From Sedimentisphaera cyanobacteriorum (GTDB lineage Bacteria; Planctomycetota; Phycisphaerae; Sedimentisphaerales; Sedimentisphaeraceae): a stretch of 32,000 nucleotides of DNA. The translations under genes were made by a program, and so were the position numbers. Positions 1 to 8,675 of this stretch are shown here, piece after piece (position 1 is the stretch's first letter; each line of letters starts with the position of its first letter). Below the pieces are notes generated by a model that saw nothing but the letters and a program-made list of their open reading frames with translations, was not told the origin of the DNA and did no database searches. The stretch is taken from the NCBI RefSeq assembly GCF_001997385.1, contig NZ_CP019633.1, forward strand, positions 1,890,001 through 1,922,000, given 5' to 3'.

Positions 1-2060
1 CCTCTGAGCTTAAACTGCGAATTCAAAGGCACATCCGCCATATAGTAGAAGGCCGATATCTGCTGGTCTGCAATGAAATCTATATCAACGCCGGAAACCT
101 TCAGCGGCTCATCAAAATAATCGCTCCAGTAGTCATCCCAGCTGAGACCCGGGTCGCTGTCAACGAAGGTGCTGTCGTTGGTGAAAGAATTCTGCTGGTA
201 GTCCCTTGTAACATCATCATTGAATATTCCAAACTTGAAATATCCCTCGTCTTCAGTCCACTGCTCAAAGGGCAGCTTAATGTTTGCAGAATACTGATCG
301 CTTTCTTCGATGATATCTTTCCATGTTCTCTGGAAGTTTCCCATATTCATATTTGCAGCAGGATTGAGCTGTTCGTACCTGCCCGGTTCGGTGTGTGCAG
401 GCACTTCAGGCGAGGGACTCGGCCAAAACGTAGGGGGCTGATAGGGAACGTAATATGGAGCTGTCCACCTTGCTGAAAACATCCTCTTGTCCGGCTGATG
501 CATAGCAGCGGTATTTCTTGAAAGAACCCAATCGAGCTCTACCGGCTTGAAACTGAACCAGTCGGTAAGCTCCCAGCTGAGATCTTCGAATTTATGATCG
601 CCTGAAAACTGAATAGTCTCAGTAGTTCTCTCGGTATATTCGAGGGTCTGGTGTCTTTGGTAAGCAGCGTGGTCCTGATATTCCTTATCATTTGCTGGAT
701 GGTGCTCGTCGTATGGATCGTAATTATCAAATTCGGGGCCGTAAGCATCCGGCCAAAACTGATGCAGTCCGGCTCGGCCGCGGGTATCTTCTGAGACAGT
801 GGCTGAGTCCTCAGCAGTTTTAGTGTACATATAAAGTGCATTGAATTTATGGGTTCCGATCTCGAGGCCTAATGTTGCCAGCGTGCTCCACTGAACCTGC
901 TGGGAGGCTTGCTTAACATCGAAAAGGGAAGTTTCAAAGCGTCCCGTGCCCGGGCCGCCTCCGCCTCCGCCTCGTTTGTCGTTGTATCTGGGAGTTACAC
1001 CTTCCCCGGGCTCTTCTACCCAGTACTTGTCATCAATCATATCATGTTTGTAGCTTGCGCTTCGTTTGTAGTTTGCGCTCAAGAAGCCGCCAATCTTCAC
1101 ATCCTCAGCGAAGGCGTGCTTGCCCCCGCCGGAGAGTGAAAAGCTGTATTCCTGCGGGGCATCCTCAGTGGCAGTTCCCACAGTATCATCCATCGAATCG
1201 ATGGAAGGCACAGAAATGCTTCGATTGCCCAAGCTGTCCAGTCCGCCGCCGTCGTAGCTGAGGAAATCATCTTCGTTAAATACGTTTGAGTTGTAGTCGT
1301 AGCCTATGCCAAACTTGAAAGATGTTTCTTCAGGGATGCCTTTGAGCACCACATTAACCGCCCCTCCAGAGGCATCTCCCTGCTGGTCGGGGGTGAATGT
1401 TTTGCTTACCTGTATGCTCTCAATCACAGCCGAGGGGAACTGGTCTAACTGAACTGCACGCTTATCGGCATCAGCCGTGGGAAGACGCACGCCGTTCATC
1501 TGGGAATTTACGTATCTGTCCGGCAGGCCGCGAACAACGGCATACTTGCCGTCCTGAACAGTTGTACCTGAAACAAGCTTCAGCGCGCTTGCTGCATCGC
1601 TAGCTCCTGCCTGGCTCATCAGCTCAGAGCTGACCGAATCCATAAGAGCAGGTGCTTCCATACGCAGATCAAGCAGGGCAAGCTCTGTACCTGCACCGAA
1701 GCTTAAATCCTGAACGACGAATTCTTCCATCTCGGTAAAATCGCCGCTAAGGGAAACATTAACCTCGCTCATTCTTCCCGGCGAAACAGCAACATCAGTT
1801 TTTACCTGACGTGTATATCCCTGCTTCGAGAATATAAGTGTGTATGTTCCCGGCTTGAGCTCGCTGAAAACATAGTTGCCTTCTTCCGCGGTTTTGGTTT
1901 TCTCCCCGGTTTCTGCAATCAGAACCTGCGCCTCAGCTACGGGCGCGTCAAAATCTTTGTCCTCAACGTAACCTCTAATGCCGCCTGCCTGCTCCGCCGA
2001 GCAGATGCAGCAGGATACGCCCAATATGACCAGCAAAACTGCAAATTTGTTTATTACCAT
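1..2060 (-). CDS. TonB-dependent receptor-like outer-membrane protein (signal peptide, carboxypeptidase-regulatory-like domain, plug, start of barrel). The 3' end runs off the window.
   Basis: It is missing from the ORF track because it is open at the window edge. My reverse-strand translation from ATG 2060-2058 has no stop down to base 3. It begins MVINKFAVLLVILGVSCCICSAEQAGGIRGYVEDKDFDAPVAEAQVLIAETGEKTKTAEEGNYVFSELKPGTYTLIFSKQGYTRQVK. Further on it reads VQDGKYAVVRGLPDRYVNSQMNGVRLPTADADKRAVQLDQFPSAVIESIQV, which is a plug-domain type motif. The start overlaps the stop of the upstream gene (ccATGGTAAta). Confidence 0.8.
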   Translation of the reverse strand, partial: MVINKFAVLLVILGVSCCICSAEQAGGIRGYVEDKDFDAPVAEAQVLIAETGEKTKTAEEGNYVFSELKPGTYTLIFSKQGYTRQVKTDVAVSPGRMSEVNVSLSGDFTEMEEFVVQDLSFGAGTELALLDLRMEAPALMDSVSSELMSQAGASDAASALKLVSGTTVQDGKYAVVRGLPDRYVNSQMNGVRLPTADADKRAVQLDQFPSAVIESIQVSKTFTPDQQGDASGGAVNVVLKGIPEETSFKFGIGYDYNSNVFNEDDFLSYDGGGLDSLGNRSISVPSIDSMDDTVGTATEDAPQEYSFSLSGGGKHAFAEDVKIGGFLSANYKRSASYKHDMIDDKYWVEEPGEGVTPRYNDKRGGGGGGPGTGRFETSLFDVKQASQQVQWSTLATLGLEIGTHKFNALYMYTKTAEDSATVSEDTRGRAGLHQFWPDAYGPEFDNYDPYDEHHPANDKEYQDHAAYQRHQTLEYTERTTETIQFSGDHKFEDLSWELTDWFSFKPVELDWVLSRNTAAMHQPDKRMFSARWTAPYYVPYQPPTFWPSPSPEVPAHTEPGRYEQLNPAANMNMGNFQRTWKDIIEESDQYSANIKLPFEQWTEDEGYFKFGIFNDDVTRDYQQNSFTNDSTFVDSDPGLSWDDYWSDYFDEPLKVSGVDIDFIADQQISAFYYMADVPLNSQFKLR

Positions 2061-3352
2061 GGAACGCTCAGGCTCCCTTTAACTTCCTTAATTTCAGCAA
2101 GCAGTTTCTCGCTTGGATTAACCTTATGTTTTGCCATAGAGCAGCACACATCGCAGAGATCTATAGCAGTAGGACGGGAATTGGGATTTTCCGCCCCTTC
2201 CTTCACAGCCATGGCATAAATTTCAGCCGCTTTTTCCCGGCGATCCATAGAAACGCAGGCCTCTGCAATGGACGTAAGCGCTTCGGAGCGGTAAATATCT
2301 ACTATTTTCTCTTTCTGCTCTTTGAAAAGCTCAATTTCTTCGTCGGCTTCCTTAACGGCCTTTTCTTTCTGTCCGGCTTTGAATCGCGCAGCTGCCACTT
2401 TCGCTGTAAGAGGCATTCTATTCTCAAGACGCCACTTGCCTGAAGTTATCATCTGCCTTGCCTTGTCTATCAGCTCAACTGCCTTTGCGGTGTTTCCTCC
2501 GTCAATATTTGCCTCAGCCATCTTCACAAGCAGATCAATCCTGATAAAGTACGGTATGGTCTTCCAAGAGGAGGTAATCTTATCTTCCAGCATCTGCCTT
2601 CTTGAACTGTTCTCGTAAAACCTTTCGTACAGTTCAAAGCATGCATAAAGGGCATTTTTCACAATATCATAAACGCCTGTTTTTATCATTTCGTCGATAG
2701 AGGCAAGCTGAGAATCAAACTCTTGCTCACTGCAAATCTCCGCCTTTGTCGCAGCAACTTTGCCTGTTTCGGCCTCAACGAGATTCTCTTCAAACTGCTC
2801 GCTATGACTATCATTCCCGAGAAGGGTTTCCGCCTGAGCAATTCGCACTTTAACCCTGTCTCTTCGCCAGTCTTCAAGATTCGGTTCTTCTATTACTTCT
2901 TCAGCCAAGGCAATAAACTCGTTTGCTCTGCCTTTCTGGTTATTTTCTGCAAAATAGTAAGCCAGCTCCCCGAAGCATACGCCCTTGCGCCAGTTTAGAA
3001 TTTTTTTGGTCTGCTCTGCTGCAGTTTTTATCTGACCGAGCTCAATATAAGCTTTTACAACCTTCTGCTGTGATTTGCTTCGGTCTTTAATATGCGGCTT
3101 TACAGGAATCATAGATGCCGTTTGGAAGGCAATTTCCATAAGCTGGTTCTGATAATCCTCAATTTGAGAATTTTCAAGAGCAGCTTTCGTTTCAGCTTTT
3201 CTCGTAATCTCAGCAGAGCTTCTTTCAGCCGCTTGATTTTCTGCCTGATTATCAGCCGTTTGTTTATCGCAGCCTGCAAAAAAAACAGCTAAAGCCATAA
3301 CGCCGGCCGCTGCGAGCATTGAAAGTTTTTTATTCGCTTTTCTTACTGTCAT
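2054..3352 (-). CDS. Predicted lipoprotein, largely alpha-helical (TPR-like repeats possible), function unknown
   Basis: 432-aa ORF. The N-terminus MTVRKANKKLSMLAAAGVMALAVFFAGCDKQ has a signal peptide plus a lipobox (FFAG|C). The rest is rich in helix-forming A/E/K/L stretches. The stop overlaps the start of the downstream receptor gene by 7 nt. Confidence 0.7.
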   Translation of the reverse strand: MTVRKANKKLSMLAAAGVMALAVFFAGCDKQTADNQAENQAAERSSAEITRKAETKAALENSQIEDYQNQLMEIAFQTASMIPVKPHIKDRSKSQQKVVKAYIELGQIKTAAEQTKKILNWRKGVCFGELAYYFAENNQKGRANEFIALAEEVIEEPNLEDWRRDRVKVRIAQAETLLGNDSHSEQFEENLVEAETGKVAATKAEICSEQEFDSQLASIDEMIKTGVYDIVKNALYACFELYERFYENSSRRQMLEDKITSSWKTIPYFIRIDLLVKMAEANIDGGNTAKAVELIDKARQMITSGKWRLENRMPLTAKVAAARFKAGQKEKAVKEADEEIELFKEQKEKIVDIYRSEALTSIAEACVSMDRREKAAEIYAMAVKEGAENPNSRPTAIDLCDVCCSMAKHKVNPSEKLLAEIKEVKGSLSVPW

Positions 3353-3376
3353 ACCTTTTCCGTAAAAGAATCTGAT

Positions 3377-3398
3377 GACAGGGCATTAAAGCCCTGCC
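3377..3398 (-). terminator. Short GC hairpin between the secreted-protein gene and the lipoprotein gene (possible attenuator or weak terminator)
   Basis: CAGGGC (3379-3384) and GCCCTG (3391-3396) flank a 6-nt loop. On the minus strand only a weak T-rich tail follows (tcatcagattctttt). Confidence 0.3.
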
Positions 3399-3439
3399 AC
3401 CAGATATTGATTATTTGTTGTCAGTCATTGAAAGGTTAA

Positions 3440-5077
3440 TTACTTAACCTGAAGCCATCCTGCACCAACAGCAGAGAGGTCTTCAACGTCAACGATACCG
3501 TCATTGTTGATATCGCCGCTTGGCTGATTCATTGAAGTATCTGTCATACCGTACTGATCGATTGCAGACCAGTTGGCAAGCCAGTTGTTGTCTTCGCTGA
3601 ATCCGCCGCGGAACTGAGCAGGAACAAAGAAGCCGTCTGCCGGAGCTGTACCAGCGCTTGCTGCGGCATCGTTAGCTGCACATGGGTTGATAAACTCTAC
3701 AGGATAAACGTCTTTGCCGCCTTTAACAACTTTGCCGCCGCGAACGAGCTTCTGGATCGGCATATTCTGATCCGGGTTAGAAGGTACGTAAGCAGCAGTT
3801 ACGTTGTTGTTTGAGCCGTCGCGTACGCCGCGTGCATCTGCTTCTGTGTAAGCATCAGAGTGCATATTGCGGAAGAACACTGAATCTGAGATCTCAGCGA
3901 GCTTGCCGTCAACCTGTGCGGTGTACATTACGGAAGGATCGTTGAATCCGCCTGCTGACCAGCTGCCTGCGTTAGGCATAGCAGTTGAAGTTGAGTAGTC
4001 GTAGTCTGTTGTCCATGTGTCTGCCCAGGAGAGCGTGCCGTTGTAGCCGTAGCCGTTAGCACCGTCGCCGTCGTCGTCATCGAATCTTACGAGCTTTTCG
4101 CCGAGATCCATGAAGATGCAGTTGCGATACTGCATACGGGCGTTATCACGCCAGGTGGTACCGCCGTCGCCGTCGCCCGGGTTGCCCACTACTGTAAAAT
4201 TGTAGATTGAAGCAGTTGTTACAGGCTGAGCATCTGAGTCTTCAGCACCGTCTGTCTCGAAGCAGTTGTCGCCAACGCCTGAGCCCTGGCTTGCATCGAT
4301 TGAGTGTCCCTGAACGATAAGACCGAACTGAGCCTTGCCTCTCCAGCCCTGGTCGATATCGAAGCTGTCGTCGCCGATGTTCCAGATGTTTACGTACTTG
4401 AGGCAAACAGTTCCGCCCCAAATTTCGATACCGTCATCAACGTTGTTGATAACTTCAACGTGGCTGATGTCTGTTTCACGTCCGATACCGCCGAGTGAAA
4501 GACCGTTAAGCTCATTTGCAAGACCGATCACTTTACCGCCGTAACGCAGTGAGAGATAGCTTATTGAACCTGAGTTGTCGTTGTCGTCGTTGCCGCCGTA
4601 CATACCGTAGGTGTTGTCTGTAAGACCTTCCATCAGCTTCTCGTTGTCGCCGGTTGGGGTCTTGGTATTGTCGCCTACGGGATTTCCGCCGTAGTGCGAA
4701 GCAGAGATAAGAGCATTACCCATCAGAGTAAGGTTGCCCCATTCATTACAGCCTTCGCGGTAGGTCTTGAGGTCGTCATCAGTAGAGGTCATAATAACTG
4801 GAGCATCTTCTGTACCGTTTACATAGATTTTAGCTCCGCGTGATACAGCAAGGCTTCCGCCCAAACCTGATGTGCTCTGTACGAGCGTGCCCGGTTCGAT
4901 TGTGAGAGTTGCACCCGGCTCAACGAAAACCTGATCCTGAAGATTATAGACGTTATCCGACGTCCATGTAGTAGAGGTTGAGATATTGGAACTTACCAAC
5001 ACCTCAGCAGCATTTGCAGTTCCTGCCGCAGCAAAAACCGCAACTGCAAGTGCTAATGAGATTTTTTTAAGATTCAT
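3440..5077 (-). CDS. Secreted protein, probably a right-handed beta-helix fold, with a C-terminal dockerin-like Ca-binding repeat
   Basis: The track ORF (3440..5158) is trimmed to the internal Met at 5077, which gives a classic signal peptide MNLKKISLALAVAVFAAAGTANA|AEV. The body is G/D/N/T-rich with repeated turn motifs. The C-terminus GDINNDGIVDVEDLSAVGAGWLQ resembles a single dockerin/EF-hand-like repeat. Confidence 0.65.
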   Translation of the reverse strand: MNLKKISLALAVAVFAAAGTANAAEVLVSSNISTSTTWTSDNVYNLQDQVFVEPGATLTIEPGTLVQSTSGLGGSLAVSRGAKIYVNGTEDAPVIMTSTDDDLKTYREGCNEWGNLTLMGNALISASHYGGNPVGDNTKTPTGDNEKLMEGLTDNTYGMYGGNDDNDNSGSISYLSLRYGGKVIGLANELNGLSLGGIGRETDISHVEVINNVDDGIEIWGGTVCLKYVNIWNIGDDSFDIDQGWRGKAQFGLIVQGHSIDASQGSGVGDNCFETDGAEDSDAQPVTTASIYNFTVVGNPGDGDGGTTWRDNARMQYRNCIFMDLGEKLVRFDDDDGDGANGYGYNGTLSWADTWTTDYDYSTSTAMPNAGSWSAGGFNDPSVMYTAQVDGKLAEISDSVFFRNMHSDAYTEADARGVRDGSNNNVTAAYVPSNPDQNMPIQKLVRGGKVVKGGKDVYPVEFINPCAANDAAASAGTAPADGFFVPAQFRGGFSEDNNWLANWSAIDQYGMTDTSMNQPSGDINNDGIVDVEDLSAVGAGWLQVK

Positions 5078-5400
5078 AGGAACCCTTTCAAAAAAAAATT
5101 GAGTAAAGTAAAAAAGTTTTAATACGCTTAACAACTTTCGCCTTTTATCCAGCACCAACGCAGCGCTGGGCTAAAGACTATTGGTGAGTGTAGAATCATA
5201 ATGTTTGCAAACTATTAGCGATAAATTCAAAAAAAGTTAGGCCTGCAATAAGGGGGGATTAAAACCGAATAAACACCCGAACAGGGATTTTGTTTGCATT
5301 TTTGCTTGAAAGAAAATTTATTGCCTGCAAAATAAGTGCTTATTTATTTTCGGACAAAATCCGCTCAGGACTAGTCTATTACATTAAAATGGAGCATAAT

Positions 5401-5694
5401 ATGCCTGATATGATTAATGAGAAACAGGTACGAGAGGTTGCGGCGCTTGCAAGGCTCGAACTCACAGATGAGGAAGTAAGCCGGTTTGCAACGCAGCTGA
5501 GTGATATCCTTGCATATATAGAAAAGCTGGGAGAGCTTGATACTGAAGCGGTTGAACCGCTCGCGCACAGCCTTCCTGTGAAAAATGTTTTCAGGGCAGA
5601 TGAGCCCGGCCAGACGCTGGATAGAGACCAAGCCCTGAAAAACGCCCCCGACAGCGACGGGGAGCATTTCTGCGTACCGAAGGTTTTAGAGTAG
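5401..5694 (+). CDS. gatC: Asp-tRNA(Asn)/Glu-tRNA(Gln) amidotransferase subunit C
   Basis: MPDMINEKQVREVAALARLELTDEEVSRFATQLSDILAYIEKLGELDTEAVEPLAH... is a typical GatC sequence. GGAG at 5391-5394 lies 6 nt upstream of ATG 5401. ATGs at 5389 and 5410 are alternative starts. The track's upstream extension from 5290 was rejected. Confidence 0.9.
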   Translation: MPDMINEKQVREVAALARLELTDEEVSRFATQLSDILAYIEKLGELDTEAVEPLAHSLPVKNVFRADEPGQTLDRDQALKNAPDSDGEHFCVPKVLE

Positions 5695-5806
5695 CAAGTG
5701 GCGAGTGGCGAGTGGCAAGTGGCGAGTGGCGAGTGGCGAGTGGCAAGTGGCGAGTGGCGAGTGGCGAGTGGCGAGTGGCAAGTGGCGAGTGGCAAGTGGC
5801 GGCCGC
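5694..5806 (+). repeat. Tandem array of 15 heptamers (GCGAGTG/GCAAGTG) ending in GCGGCCGC
   Basis: I counted these directly. There are 15 consecutive 7-nt units from 5694 to 5798: GCAAGTG at units 1, 4, 8, 13 and 15, and GCGAGTG elsewhere. GCGGCCGC follows at 5799-5806. The array starts on the last base of the gatC stop codon. Confidence 0.95.
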
Positions 5807-5939
5807 TGCTCAAGCTGAAATAGCCAACGAGCTGGGTTACATAAATAATAATACTTTTGAAAGTTTTATTTCGGAATCTAATGCAATAGGTAAAATGATA
5901 AGCAGTTTAATAAAGAAAATACTAAACGACAACCGTTAG
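5799..5939 (+). pseudogene. Truncated remnant (C-terminal ~45 aa) of a four-helix-bundle protein (23S rRNA intervening-sequence protein family)
   Basis: The translation AAAQAEIANELGYINNNTFESFISESNAIGKMISSLIKKILNDNR* matches the last-helix pattern of this family as I recall it (...L.KDLGYI....FE.......EIGKML..LIKSL). The ~80 N-terminal residues expected for the family are missing and are replaced by the heptamer array. Confidence 0.6.
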
Positions 5940-5946
5940 CAATGGC

Positions 5947-6009
5947 CACTTACTGCTCGCCACTTGCTGCTTGCCGCTTGCCACTTGCTGCTTGCCACTT
6001 GCGGCCGGC
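5947..6009 (+). repeat. Eight heptamers that are the imperfect reverse complement of the 5694-5798 array, ending in GCGGCCGGC
   Basis: The units are CACTTAC, TGCTCGC, CACTTGC, TGCTTGC, CGCTTGC, CACTTGC, TGCTTGC, CACTTGC (5947-6002). CACTTGC is the exact reverse complement of GCAAGTG. The arm ends 16 nt before the gatA ATG, directly in front of its AAGGA ribosome-binding site. Confidence 0.9.
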
Positions 6010-6025
6010 ACAATAAGGAAAATTT

Positions 6026-7501
6026 ATGGACTTAACAAAAAAAACACTAACTGAGATTCGTGATAAAATAGCGGCTCAAGAGCTAACCAGCCTTGAGGTT
6101 ACCAAAGCTTTGCTTGCCGAAATAGAAGCCAAGAACGATAAGTTAGGGGCGTATTTAGAGCTGTTCGCAGAGCATTGCCTTGCAAAAGCGGAAAAAATAG
6201 ACAAGCGAATAAAGGCCGGCGAGAAATGCGGAGCATTGGCAGGCGTTCCGATAGCAATCAAAGACAATATGACCACGGTCTGGGGCAAAACCACCTGCTC
6301 TTCCAAGATACTCGAAAATTTCGAAGCGCCGTACAACGCCACAGTGGTTGAAAAGCTCCTCGCAGAGGATGCAGTTATAATAGGCAAGCTCAATCTCGAT
6401 GAATTCGCAATGGGCTCAAGCACGGAAAATGCAGGCCTCGGTAAAACCGCCAACCCGTGGGACAGCAGCCGCGTTCCGGGCGGAAGCAGCGGAGGCAGCG
6501 CAGCGGCCGTTTCAGCGGGGCTGTGCTACGGGGCTCTGGGCTCGGATACCGGCGGTTCAATCCGCCAGCCGGCAAGCTTCTGCGGGGTGGTAGGCCTCAA
6601 GCCAACCTACGGCCGGGTTTCTCGTTATGGACTTGTAGCGTTCGGCTCAAGCCTCGATCAGATCGGCCCTCTTGCAAGAAACACTCAAGACGCCGCCCTG
6701 CTTATGAACGTAATCACAGGCCACGACCCCAAAGACAGTACAAGCCTCAGCGAAGAACTCGCACCGAAAACCGATTTCACGAAGGATATAGACAAGCCGC
6801 TTGAAGGGCTCAAGATTGCTGTTGTGCCGGAGTTTATCGAAAAGGCCGGAGAGGCAGTGAAAGAGGCGATTGGGAAGGCTGTGGAATTTTACCGCTCTAA
6901 AGGCGCAGAAATTCGGGAAGTGAAGATGCCGCATTCGGATTATGCCGTTGCCACGTATTACATCGTTGCTACGGCTGAGGCCTCGGCAAACCTCGCCCGC
7001 TTCGACGGCGTTCGCTACGGATACCGCAGCGAAAAGCCCGAAAACTATATGGATGTGTACACGAAATCCAGAGATGAGGGCTTCGGGGCGGAGGTTAAAA
7101 GGCGGATTATGCTCGGAACATACGCCCTCTCCAGCGGCTACTACGACGCATACTACCTCAAAGCTCTAAAGGTGCGAAATCTCATCCGGCAGGACTTCAA
7201 ATACATATTCAAAGACTGCGACTGCCTGCTCACGCCCACCTCGCCGTCGGGGGCGTTCAAATTCGGCGAAAAATCAGACGACCCCATCCAGATGTACCTC
7301 GAGGATATCTATACAATCTCGGCTAATCTTGCTGGCGTGCCGGGAGTGAGCATTCCGTGCGGATTCGACGAAAACAATATGCCTCTCGGCATGCAGATTA
7401 TCACAGATACTTTCCAAGAGGCTAAGATGCTGAGAATCGCAAGGATGTTCGAAAAGGAACATTCATACGAAAATCAGATACCGGAAGATAGCAGAGAATA
7501 A
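6026..7501 (+). CDS. gatA: Asp-tRNA(Asn)/Glu-tRNA(Gln) amidotransferase subunit A
   Basis: 491 aa. It carries the amidase signature GGSSGGSAAAVSAG...GSDTGGSIRQPA, and the sequence is GatA-like over its full length. It lies directly downstream of gatC. Confidence 0.95.
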   Translation: MDLTKKTLTEIRDKIAAQELTSLEVTKALLAEIEAKNDKLGAYLELFAEHCLAKAEKIDKRIKAGEKCGALAGVPIAIKDNMTTVWGKTTCSSKILENFEAPYNATVVEKLLAEDAVIIGKLNLDEFAMGSSTENAGLGKTANPWDSSRVPGGSSGGSAAAVSAGLCYGALGSDTGGSIRQPASFCGVVGLKPTYGRVSRYGLVAFGSSLDQIGPLARNTQDAALLMNVITGHDPKDSTSLSEELAPKTDFTKDIDKPLEGLKIAVVPEFIEKAGEAVKEAIGKAVEFYRSKGAEIREVKMPHSDYAVATYYIVATAEASANLARFDGVRYGYRSEKPENYMDVYTKSRDEGFGAEVKRRIMLGTYALSSGYYDAYYLKALKVRNLIRQDFKYIFKDCDCLLTPTSPSGAFKFGEKSDDPIQMYLEDIYTISANLAGVPGVSIPCGFDENNMPLGMQIITDTFQEAKMLRIARMFEKEHSYENQIPEDSRE

Positions 7502-7701: not shown

Positions 7702-8675
7702 CTATAACCACTTTTTATTCTTGAAGATTATTATTTGTATAATCACAGCGGCGGCCAATATCAATAAAAAAAACCAAAAAGCGGATTCATCTTCAGCGCC
7801 TGGGATACCGCCTACGTTTATACCTAACAGCCCCGTAAGAAAACTTAACGGCAGAAAAATAGCTGCAGCAAGTGAAAGAACATACATTCTGGAATTCAGC
7901 TGTTCTGAGAGTTTGCCCGAGAGCTGTTCCTGGGCTACTGCTGCACGGTCTCTGATGGAATCGAGGTCTTCATTATATCTGATAAGTTTGTCGTTAGTTT
8001 CTCTAAGCTGCCTACTGTCCTCATCGCTCAGCCAGCTGAAGCGGTCTGTCTGAAGCTTAAACATTGCCTCTCTTTGGGGGGGGGCAGATATCTTTTTAGC
8101 AATATCGCCTCTCTTCTTATTTCTGAAAGCTGAGTTCGCAAGTCATAACTTCCCTCGGAAATAAGCAGCTCTTCAAGCTCATCCAGGCGGTCTTCTATGT
8201 TTTGCACAGTGTCTTCAATTCTTTCAATCAGCCGCTCTGCCAGATCGCTTATGAATTCTCCTGTAGTTTTCGGGCCGTTTTTATCATTGAAAGATTGTAT
8301 GATATCATTCTCAGAGAGCAGTTTTCTTTTTCGCGTGCTGATAATTCGATTCTCATCTGCCCAAAGCCTGATCGCTACCATATCTTCGGGCTCAGAGTTT
8401 GGGCTCAAATTAACGCCTCTCAGGGCAATCAGTGCTGCGTTATCTATCATCGAAACCCTCGGCCGGCTCTCTTCAGACAATAACGCTGATACTGTTGTTT
8501 CATCAAGGCCGCTCTTTTCAGCGAGCCACCTTGCAGAATCAGCTTCTGTATAGTCAAGATGTATCCAGCAGGGACCTTGTTCGGGGAGCCAATTATCCAT
8601 GTCCTGCCGGCTGCCTTGCCGGGCCGAGCCCTTCCCGTCCATAATATAGAAATACAGCAAACCGTTTTCAGACAT
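7702..8675 (-). pseudogene. zntB: ZntB-like CorA-family divalent-cation transporter, interrupted by a frameshift in a G9 (coding-strand C9) homopolymer
   Basis: Two track ORFs, 8028..8675 and 7702..8064, together make one CorA/ZntB protein. The first is the N-terminal cytoplasmic domain, ending ...AILLKRYLPPPKERQCLSFRQTASAG*. The second holds the C-terminal TM helices with FLPLSFLTGLLGINVGGIPG, a ZntB-type GxN motif. The frames switch at the G-run 8076-8084. With 7 or 10 C the product reads RYLPP(P)QREAMFKLQTDRFSWL, an intact ~324-aa protein. Confidence 0.8.

Follow-up and report, generated by a model that had tools for sequence, protein, structure and literature searches.

The spacer between gatC and gatA in Sedimentisphaera cyanobacteriorum is best read as a decayed cassette of the type known from the intervening sequences (IVSs) of 23S rRNA genes, here residing in an mRNA, with a hairpin that RNase III would cleave and with its four-helix-bundle (4HB) gene lost, so that it is carried along as a tolerated passenger; we put the probability of this reading at roughly 0.7. 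The spacer lies in a 32,000-nt stretch of contig NZ_CP019633.1, hereafter the window, to which all positions refer unless another locus is named. The S23p/4HB protein family was first described inside 23S rRNA IVSs, which are bracketed by a long stem that RNase III excises. A first-pass annotation of the window, made from the letters alone, had proposed that an IVS-type element or its decayed remnant is lodged in this protein-coding operon, and the proposal is now strongly supported by an intact counterpart gene with matching arms in Sedimentisphaera salicampi, by the 94.7% nucleotide identity of the remnant to that gene and by the heptamer stem of the Coxiella IVS. In its complete form, the cassette consists of a promoterless gene for a protein of ~120 aa (TIGR02436, S23p) in the loop of a hairpin whose arms are inverted arrays of degenerate heptamers, and the window copy has lost the first ~80 codons while its arms have grown from ~4 to 15 and 8 units. 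The parts are as follows:

gatC, 5401-5694, plus strand: Pfam GatC (E 1e-24); its stop codon TAG (5692-5694) lies inside the degenerate heptamer unit GAGTAGC (5689-5695).
5' arm, 5694-5798, plus strand: 15 tandem heptamers GCRAGTG (10 GCGAGTG, 5 GCAAGTG), expanded relative to the usual ~4 units.
GC-rich junction (GCGGCCGC...), 5799-5814, plus strand: the 5' arm meets the truncated open reading frame (ORF); placed by comparison with the S. salicampi locus L202, with which homology begins at window 5815 = L202 3738.
4HB gene remnant (TIGR02436 / PF05635 'S23p'), 5815-5939, plus strand: end of helix 3 and helix 4, stop codon TAG at 5937-5939; a pseudogene.
3' arm, 5940-6002, plus strand: degenerate unit CAATGGC followed by 8 inverted heptamers (CACTTGC and variants) that complement the 5' arm.
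GGCCGGCAC and then the conserved spacer CACAATAAGGAAAA, 6003-6025, plus strand: contains the gatA ribosome-binding site AAGGA at 6015-6019.
gatA, 6026-7501, plus strand: Pfam Amidase (E 2e-154), ATG at 6026, 84% nucleotide identity to S. salicampi gatA.
Annotated ORF, hypothetical protein L21SP3_01527, 75 aa, 5712-5939, plus strand: GTG start within the array; reads (ASGEWRV)n and then the 4HB remnant.

The two genes are separated by 331 nt, and the gatC stop codon overlaps the first array unit (window 5694). Tandem Repeats Finder (TRF) delimits the left array at 5689-5801 (period 7, 16.1 copies, 89% matches), and the last of the 15 units is followed by GCGGCCGC at 5799-5806, a place where the motif GCGGCC also closes the 5' arm in L202. 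After an interior of 140 nt, the right array (5947-6002) runs through the 8 units CACTTAC, TGCTCGC, CACTTGC, TGCTTGC, CGCTTGC, CACTTGC, TGCTTGC and CACTTGC directly into GGCCGGCAC, and the end of the 3' arm is 23 nt from the gatA ATG. A two-unit heptamer pattern gave 15 matches against 0.01 expected, all in this one place, which makes it the sole such array in the window. On recheck, the repeat units, coordinates and sequences reported in the first pass were borne out, and so was the claim that the interior holds the C-terminal end of a 4HB protein only: the translation of 5799-5939 matches TIGR02436 over positions 70-108 of 109, some 40 residues (E 6.7e-6, 26.3 bits, cut-off 24), and PF05635 ('23S_rRNA_IVP') over positions 74-105 of 106 (E 3.7e-4, 21.1 bits, gathering score 33.8). 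With one third of the profile covered, this falls short of a full-length family match, and the window fragment is a pseudogene fragment of the TIGR02436 / PF05635 family. From the alignment with the intact gene, the junction at 5799-5814 is the deletion breakpoint at which ~80 N-terminal codons of the 4HB gene were removed, and with these codons lost no 4HB protein should be made from the window copy. A protein search with the 46-aa fragment, which is too short for the word index, found the fragment itself as its sole match, and an Rfam scan of the spacer gave as its best result a chance-level CrcZ match (12.5 bits against a gathering score of 95).

The same site in relatives, located through GatC homologues, provides the most direct evidence. 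In the complete genome of S. salicampi (CP021023, locus L202), an intact gene for a 125-aa 4HB protein stands between gatC and gatA, in the same spacer as in the window, and is flanked by heptamer arms of the GCGAGTG type. The protein matches TIGR02436 with E 7e-40 and also PF05635/bAvd, with solved pentameric relatives (2GSC, 2RLD). Window 5815-5946 is 94.7% identical at the nucleotide level to L202 3738-3869, the 3' end of the intact gene, and therefore the window holds a 5'-truncated orthologue. The L202 spacer is itself a composite (3289-3935): a short G-rich arm is followed by an ORF-less partner arm, an internally deleted ORF copy, a short C-rich array, the full ORF and a 9-unit C-rich arm, which makes three C-rich arrays for one G-rich array, and the internal deletion of the ORF copy lies between two 10-nt direct repeats (AAAATGATAA). 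In a second S. salicampi assembly (NHPQ01000027, locus L201), gatA is identical at 1475 of 1476 positions and the spacer is only 25 nt long, TAGCGAGTGGCCACAATAAGG. It is laid out as TAG-CGAGTG-GC-CAC-AATAAGGAAAAACT, so that one heptamer and the stem base (GTGGCCAC) are kept and 630 nt are missing; CACAATAAGGAAAA is common to the window, to L202, where it lies 3' of the cassette, and to L201, where it forms the empty site. GatC has 97 aa in both Sedimentisphaera species versus 99-102 aa in relatives without the cassette, the unit with the gatC stop (GAGTAGC) recurs as a unit variant inside the S. salicampi arrays, and more distant relatives have unrelated gatC-gatA spacers of 18-23 nt without GCGAGTG. 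Together, these observations indicate that the empty L201 site is a deletion footprint and not a virgin target. A deletion promoted by the hairpin, with 2-nt repeats at the stem base as its end points, would fit this footprint, and the genus shows an apparent decay series from an intact gene through an internally deleted or truncated gene and an ORF-less hairpin to a footprint. A further locus (L203 2038-2541, contig NODE_15185), whose GatC is 80% identical, carries in its gatC-gatA spacer a gene for a 127-aa GxxExxY / PDDEXK_3 protein (TIGR04256, E 1e-40) that is bracketed by a 25-bp inverted repeat of 8-nt units (NRAGACGC x2.5 / GCGTCTYN). This suggests that a second protein family may use the same cassette design and that the gatC-gatA junction may be a recurrent landing site; no other GxxExxY gene was present in the fetched loci. 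The comparison of spacers in relatives that had been proposed at the outset thus revealed intact, empty and GxxExxY-filled junctions.

The remnant is more similar between the two Sedimentisphaera species than its surroundings: 94.7% stands against 78.6% for gatC, 84.1% for gatA, 53-64% for third codon positions and 70% for upstream non-coding sequence. Identity is also raised directly beside the cassette, in the last 54 nt of gatC (50/54, window 5641-5694) and in the first 30 nt of gatA (28/30, 6026-6055). The remnant's 7 differences are scattered and mostly non-synonymous, with four codons changed and two silent changes. Recent exchange of the cassette region between the species would be the simplest reading of this pattern. 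Gene conversion from paralogues was also considered as a cause and found unsupported, because among 5.8 billion proteins no relative of the S. salicampi 4HB protein exceeds 61% identity, the next best being 57-61% identical. The intact S. salicampi protein has a weak similarity to Avd, the accessory protein of diversity-generating retroelements (NF033474, E 1e-6), and neither it nor the GxxExxY protein had a PADLOC match to a defence system.

The design extends far beyond this genus. A genome scan for three GCRAGTG units, with one genome per species, found more than 120 loci among the matches listed, in Acidobacteriota, Chloroflexota, Planctomycetota, Bacteroidota, Cyanobacteria, Verrucomicrobiota, Gemmatimonadota, Brevundimonas, Vibrio and others. 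Besides GCRAGTG, these loci hold numerous further heptamers detected by TRF, typically as inverted array pairs with loops of 2-125 nt, and a second class had interiors of ~360-440 nt with full-length 4HB genes. As an unbiased sample, 4HB genes were collected from metagenomes by protein similarity alone, using a 3-sequence alignment, and 68 loci had at least 260 nt on each side. Period-7 arrays were present on both sides in 37 of the 68, and in 35 they were inverted complements with at most 1 mismatch, compared with a background array density in the sampled loci of 0.134 per kb, or ~0.04 per flank. More than 20 different heptamers occur among these cassettes. Four of five distinct 4HB genes on viral contigs have the paired-array layout, as do bystander 4HB genes in the genome loci.

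We define this class here as the heptamer-stem 4HB cassette. Its canonical arms have ~4.3 units (~30 nt) and are almost perfectly complementary, and a variant unit in one arm is mirrored at the matching place in the other. In 27 of 31 heptamer types, the G-rich arm (G > C) precedes the ORF, and many units contain AGT; since an inverted repeat reads alike on both strands, G-rich-first is a bias in the type of palindrome and not in the orientation of the ORF. The window shows the features of the class, with inverted arrays of one heptamer around a 4HB ORF (here a remnant), the G-rich arm 5' and a stop-to-start placement. Set against the canonical unit number, the slippage-type expansion that the first pass had read from its 15 and 8 units is plausible. 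In every case seen, a greatly expanded arm (14-21 units versus 3-8) was the 5' G-rich arm (L159 381-528, L171 2809-2937, L191 346-447 and window 5694-5798); the expanded arm of L171 contains interspersed AT-rich non-repeat segments.

Several loci stood out in this survey. A contig of a Thermomicrobiales metagenome-assembled genome (L003, DATBFX010000377.1) has at least 8 inverted heptamer-array hairpins with ~7 different heptamers in 8 kb, including AGTGGCA, AGCCGGT (twice), GGCGGGA, AGTGACA, AGTCTCA and CGAGCTT, and L082 and L099 are similarly dense; with this many heptamers, a single sequence-specific factor cannot explain all hairpins of L003. Among predicted viral contigs, IMGVR_UViG_3300032160_000019 (40.6 kb; L216, L220, L226, L252, L256 and L257) as well as L235 and L242 each carry many copies of a GAGTGGC hairpin that encloses no ORF and has arms of the canonical 4.3-4.6 units and a loop of 15-20 nt; these copies resemble a dispersed family of the REPIN or MITE (miniature inverted-repeat transposable element) kind. 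In L106 (2600-3373, minus strand), two 4HB domains are fused in tandem in a 258-aa ORF that has no flanking heptamer arrays.

The genomic context of the cassettes is as regular as their structure. In 26 of 31 loci, the 4HB ORF and the nearest gene upstream of it point in the same direction. The stop codon of this gene falls between -19 and +25 nt from the first heptamer in 28 of 31, and the end of the 3' array is 3-31 nt from the next start codon in most loci, the same arrangement as at gatC/gatA. No rRNA was found in the 20 cassette loci tested, and no transposase, integrase or HUH (Y1 tyrosine transposase) gene in or beside the cassettes. In two orthologous sets of loci, divergence of the 4HB protein keeps pace with that of the flanking host proteins (e.g. 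68% versus 70% and 61%), which indicates that cassettes can be long-term residents with an ORF under purifying selection. When the 4HB proteins are clustered, similar heptamers go with similar proteins (an AGTGGNN group and an xAGTTxx group), and thus arms and ORF descend as one unit. The idea that heptamers are copied from the target site was rejected on these grounds, and also because distant empty spacers lack GCGAGTG. As these comparisons show, the cassette can be inherited stably, and it can also disappear through a deletion that spans the hairpin base.

For the window copy, we propose the following course of events. The first unit of the array supplies the gatC stop codon, and the 3' arm ends just short of the gatA ribosome-binding site. 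No promoter or terminator signal above chance was seen in the window cassette, and no plus-strand site in 5150-6150 has the GC-rich stem and U-tract of an intrinsic terminator, GGCCGGCACAATAAGG being what follows the stem; together with the stop-to-start placement, this makes it probable that the cassette is transcribed within the gatCA mRNA. The arms of the transcript would pair into a stem of ~56-63 bp with about -115 to -160 kcal/mol. RNase III requires roughly 20 bp, and the window stem is far longer. The transcript thus most likely forms a hairpin that RNase III can cleave, by the precedent of heptamer-stemmed 23S IVSs and of a Haemophilus hairpin in a 5' untranslated region (5'-UTR), and the cut would remove the cassette RNA and place gatC and gatA on separate RNAs. 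Because the gatA ribosome-binding site is outside the stem, translation of gatA should not depend on opening of the stem. A relative at the conspecific level lives without the cassette and the ORF is lost here, and we therefore regard the remnant as most likely tolerated by its host and not needed by it as a regulator.

The pairing of the arms deserves a closer look, because it had been taken as a sign of selection at the RNA level. An inverted-repeat search finds 63 nt that are 73-79% complementary in several registers. In any register, the stem of 56-63 nt has 44-49 Watson-Crick pairs, and its roughly 14 other positions comprise 11-13 G:U and 1-3 A·C combinations on the plus strand, in agreement with the strand-specific G:U pairing first noticed. 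The comparison of both strands proposed with it likewise gave unequal stabilities, since the RNA fold of 5680-6030 reaches -162.8 kcal/mol (z -10.4) on the plus strand versus -114.4 (z -7.3) on the minus strand. The surplus of the left arm, which is G/U-rich, pairs with itself (-42.6 versus -9.0 kcal/mol) and accounts for part of this raw difference; when both arms have the same length, the folds come to -114 and -80 kcal/mol. CACAATAAGGAAAA with the gatA ribosome-binding site is mostly unpaired in the minimum-energy fold. The wobbles go back to ~3-4 substitution types, namely G versus T at the third position of the unit and, in the right arm, CA changed to TG or CG, and these have been copied between units, where TRF finds a 21-nt super-repeat. 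Across the family, arms-only folds favour the sense strand in 28 loci versus 11, with G:U pairs summing to ~84 versus ~85 between the strands. Family-wide G:U bias was therefore rejected as general evidence for selection on the RNA, these sums being near-equal and the register-based counts given below showing no such bias. The strand asymmetry of the window is real, but it is not decisive proof of RNA-level selection: the asymmetry claimed at first stands, whereas the step from it to selection on RNA rather than DNA does not.

Some of these results weigh against the reading of the spacer as a decayed, RNase III-processed passenger. We infer both the co-transcription and the RNase III cleavage. 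Folds with DNA parameters show the same strand asymmetry (-75.5 versus -52.1 kcal/mol), and the register-based count over the family gives 48 G:U versus 40 A·C, with loci split 17 versus 13, so that action of the hairpin as RNA rather than as single-stranded DNA is unproven. Whole clades of related 4HB genes have no arrays (L139, L141, L145, L146, L148, L151, L155-L158, L161-L164, L172, L174, L180, L182, L189, L192, L195, L199, L200), and hence the hairpin is not obligatory for the 4HB family. Finally, the 94.7% identity of the remnant would fit nucleotide-level constraint as well as it fits exchange between species, and such constraint would count against a tolerated passenger. The same identity, set against the 53-64% of flanking third codon positions, is one of the arguments for supposing that the hairpin has been domesticated as a selected RNA element that sets the gatC:gatA ratio, through RNase III cleavage, stabilisation of mRNA ends or abolished translational coupling. 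The plus-strand wobble excess (11-13 versus 1-3), the 34-48 kcal/mol by which the sense strand is favoured, and a stem that begins right at the gatC stop and does not cover the gatA ribosome-binding site point the same way. We nevertheless consider domestication improbable, because a nearly identical S. salicampi assembly does without the cassette, other Phycisphaerae have spacers of 18-25 nt, the remnant's few differences are distributed as in a young neutral copy, and the wobble excess stems from few independent events and could also be caused by strand-biased C-to-T change on the coding strand.

An element acting at the DNA level, that is, a palindromic mobile element like MITEs or repetitive extragenic palindromes (REPs) which folds in single-stranded DNA during replication or for a recombinase and whose RNA structure is incidental, would account for several observations but is improbable. 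Multi-nucleotide variants are mirrored between arms, e.g. TCGGCAT/ATGCCGA (L144) and GCGAGTA/TACTCGC (L149), which suggests that one arm was copied from the other; ORF-less copies with 4.3-4.6 units per arm are dispersed, several per contig; the strain-level deletion at the stem base between 2-nt repeats is clean; single-stranded DNA folds with the same asymmetry; and there is no family-wide G:U bias. This has to be set against the lack of a transposase, integrase or HUH gene in or beside the cassettes, against the strong co-orientation with the upstream gene and the stop-to-start placement, which are expected if transcription matters, and against the demonstration in rRNA that RNase III cleaves such stems (PMC4990558). 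It is very unlikely that the spacer is a contingency (phase-variation) locus in which the number of heptamers tunes gatA expression. Heptameric simple sequence repeats are prone to slippage, the arms are unequal with 15 and 8 units, and the 5'-UTR array (ATCTTTC)n of Haemophilus influenzae hmw works in this way, with RNase III (PMC12721329), yet gatCA is a housekeeping operon, the arrays derive from a cassette with the same layout beside unrelated genes, and no length variation was observed in the one genome of S. cyanobacteriorum compared. The ORF at 5712-5939 (L21SP3_01527) could be taken for a real small, repeat-containing 4HB derivative, since its 75 codons are uninterrupted, GenBank annotates it, and its UniRef cluster is named four-helix-bundle protein. 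However, it covers profile positions 70-108 of 109 only, its N-terminus is no more than an in-frame translation of the heptamers, a ribosome-binding site is lacking, the frame lies within a very stable stem, and in databases it has no relative apart from itself; in all likelihood this is no functional gene, and we rate the contrary as highly improbable. Least credible of all is an assembly artefact: tandem and inverted repeats are hard to assemble and one S. salicampi draft lacks the cassette, but the window lies within a 2.95-Mb contig, a separate, complete sister-species genome has this architecture in the corresponding spacer, and dozens of unrelated assemblies show the same design.

Further ORFs in the neighbourhood encode CorA, ferritin/rubrerythrin, FUR and a metallo-beta-lactamase-fold protein, two have no Pfam match, and there is no integrase among them. 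The CorA-like Mg2+ transporter is encoded on the minus strand by two overlapping ORFs in different frames (7702-8064 and 8028-8675; Pfam CorA 2-171 and 179-291), for which a frameshifted pseudogene, a sequencing error or a programmed frameshift may be responsible. Directly upstream of gatC, two large minus-strand ORFs (3440-5158 and 2054-3352) have no Pfam match at E<=1e-5, and their counterpart in S. salicampi is a 1040-aa Beta_helix_4 protein, which means that the region upstream of gatC differs between the two Sedimentisphaera species.

For more than 30 years, the IVSs of rRNA genes have been a curiosity without explanation, and to our knowledge, no function is known for the S23p/four-helix-bundle family with its thousands of members. 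The same design stands beside ordinary genes in many phyla and in about half of the sampled family, so that IVSs look like one niche of a general cassette. As a tentative extension, we speculate that heptamer-stem cassettes could be an unrecognised, phylum-spanning class of selfish or mobile elements of which the 23S IVSs are the rRNA-resident minority. They would colonise the stop-to-start junctions of operons, be made harmless by RNase III excision and leave behind ORF-less hairpins such as those of Xanthomonas, Geobacter and cyanobacteria, while the 4HB protein (an Avd homologue) or the GxxExxY PD-(D/E)XK protein would act on the hairpin for its maintenance or spread; this joint picture is possible but less probable than not by a wide step. 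The over-represented heptamer repeats and inverted heptamer pairs of bacteria gain a concrete candidate origin, and annotated ORFs that read through heptamer arrays, like L21SP3_01527, are probably spurious. Sedimentisphaera, whose members can be cultivated, offers a natural series with four states at one site, and one of its species has this site both filled and empty.

In full-text searches, with most subscription journals outside their scope, we found no literature that links 4HB genes to heptamer hairpins outside rRNA, and the gene-in-heptamer-hairpin architecture has apparently not been described before. Comparison with known systems shows where it belongs. Like integron attC cassettes, the elements have a promoterless small ORF, co-oriented with upstream transcription, and imperfect inverted repeats that fold in one strand; they differ in having inverted arrays on both sides of a single ORF instead of one 3' attC, in being solitary and, for the window cassette, in having no integrase or attI nearby, which keeps it outside the integron class. 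Scattered ORF-less intergenic hairpins together with a few copies that flank a small gene in inverted orientation resemble the autonomous/non-autonomous pair of REP/REPIN and RAYT (TnpA-REP). Here, however, the flanked gene is a TIGR02436 4HB gene with weak Avd similarity and not a Y1 HUH transposase, which excludes the element from that group, and the arms are tandem heptamers, whereas a REP is a single palindrome with a GTAG/CGTC tag; transposition of the cassettes is only hypothetical.

Heptamer arrays in hairpins are known from several bacteria. In the 5'-UTR of H. influenzae hmw1A, a long mRNA hairpin that is processed by RNase III has the array (ATCTTTC)n as one of its arms, and the repeat number affects expression of the downstream gene (PMC12721329). 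The predicted window transcript is similar in placing a transcribed heptamer array in a long mRNA hairpin, but the other arm of hmw1A is a G-rich non-repeat region, its loop holds no gene, and it is a dedicated device for adhesin phase variation and not a dispersed cassette. Xanthomonas has 70-75 convergent pairs of GGGAATC heptamers able to form stem-loops (PMC4692102), Geobacter metallireducens has paired heptamer sites (MTYCTGA/GGACCGG; PMC2700814), and the heptanucleotide repeats in P6b of the Nostoc tRNA-Leu intron form a hairpin whose length is set by the number of units (PMC3488679). These cases and the short tandemly repeated repetitive (STRR) sequences of cyanobacteria share with the cassettes intergenic, transcribed tandem heptamers, often in convergent pairs, but the reports treat them as simple sequence repeats, G-quadruplex motifs or regulator sites and draw no link to 4HB genes or IVSs.

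The closest relatives are the 23S IVSs themselves. Those of the S23p type occur in Coxiella burnetii, Leptospira, Xanthomonas and Brucella, at helix 9, 25 or 45 of 23S rRNA. In Coxiella burnetii, the IVS encodes S23p and has a 28-bp terminal stem whose 5' side consists of 3-4 tandem GACAGAT heptamers; strains differ in heptamer copy number, RNase III, which cuts at the first repeat, excises the IVS without religation, and the ORF is in decay, one strain having lost 176 bp of it (PMC4990558). This stem of tandem heptamers means that the classical IVS shares its design with the gatC-gatA cassette. The window element has a remnant of the same protein family in sense orientation in the loop of a long stem, complementary termini (56-63 bp, -162.8 kcal/mol, z -10.4) and an ORF that has decayed as in Coxiella, here to its C-terminal ~40 residues, with an intact copy in S. 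salicampi. It differs in residing in the gatC-gatA spacer of an mRNA and not in rRNA, in its much longer, wobble-rich arms of 15 and 8 units and in the loss of two thirds of the ORF. The window element is thus IVS-like in design rather than a strict member of the IVS class. As a single locus, it represents the IVS design in an mRNA host, and its main value lies in an architecture that ties together IVSs, the uncharacterised 4HB family and the heptamer repeats of bacteria.

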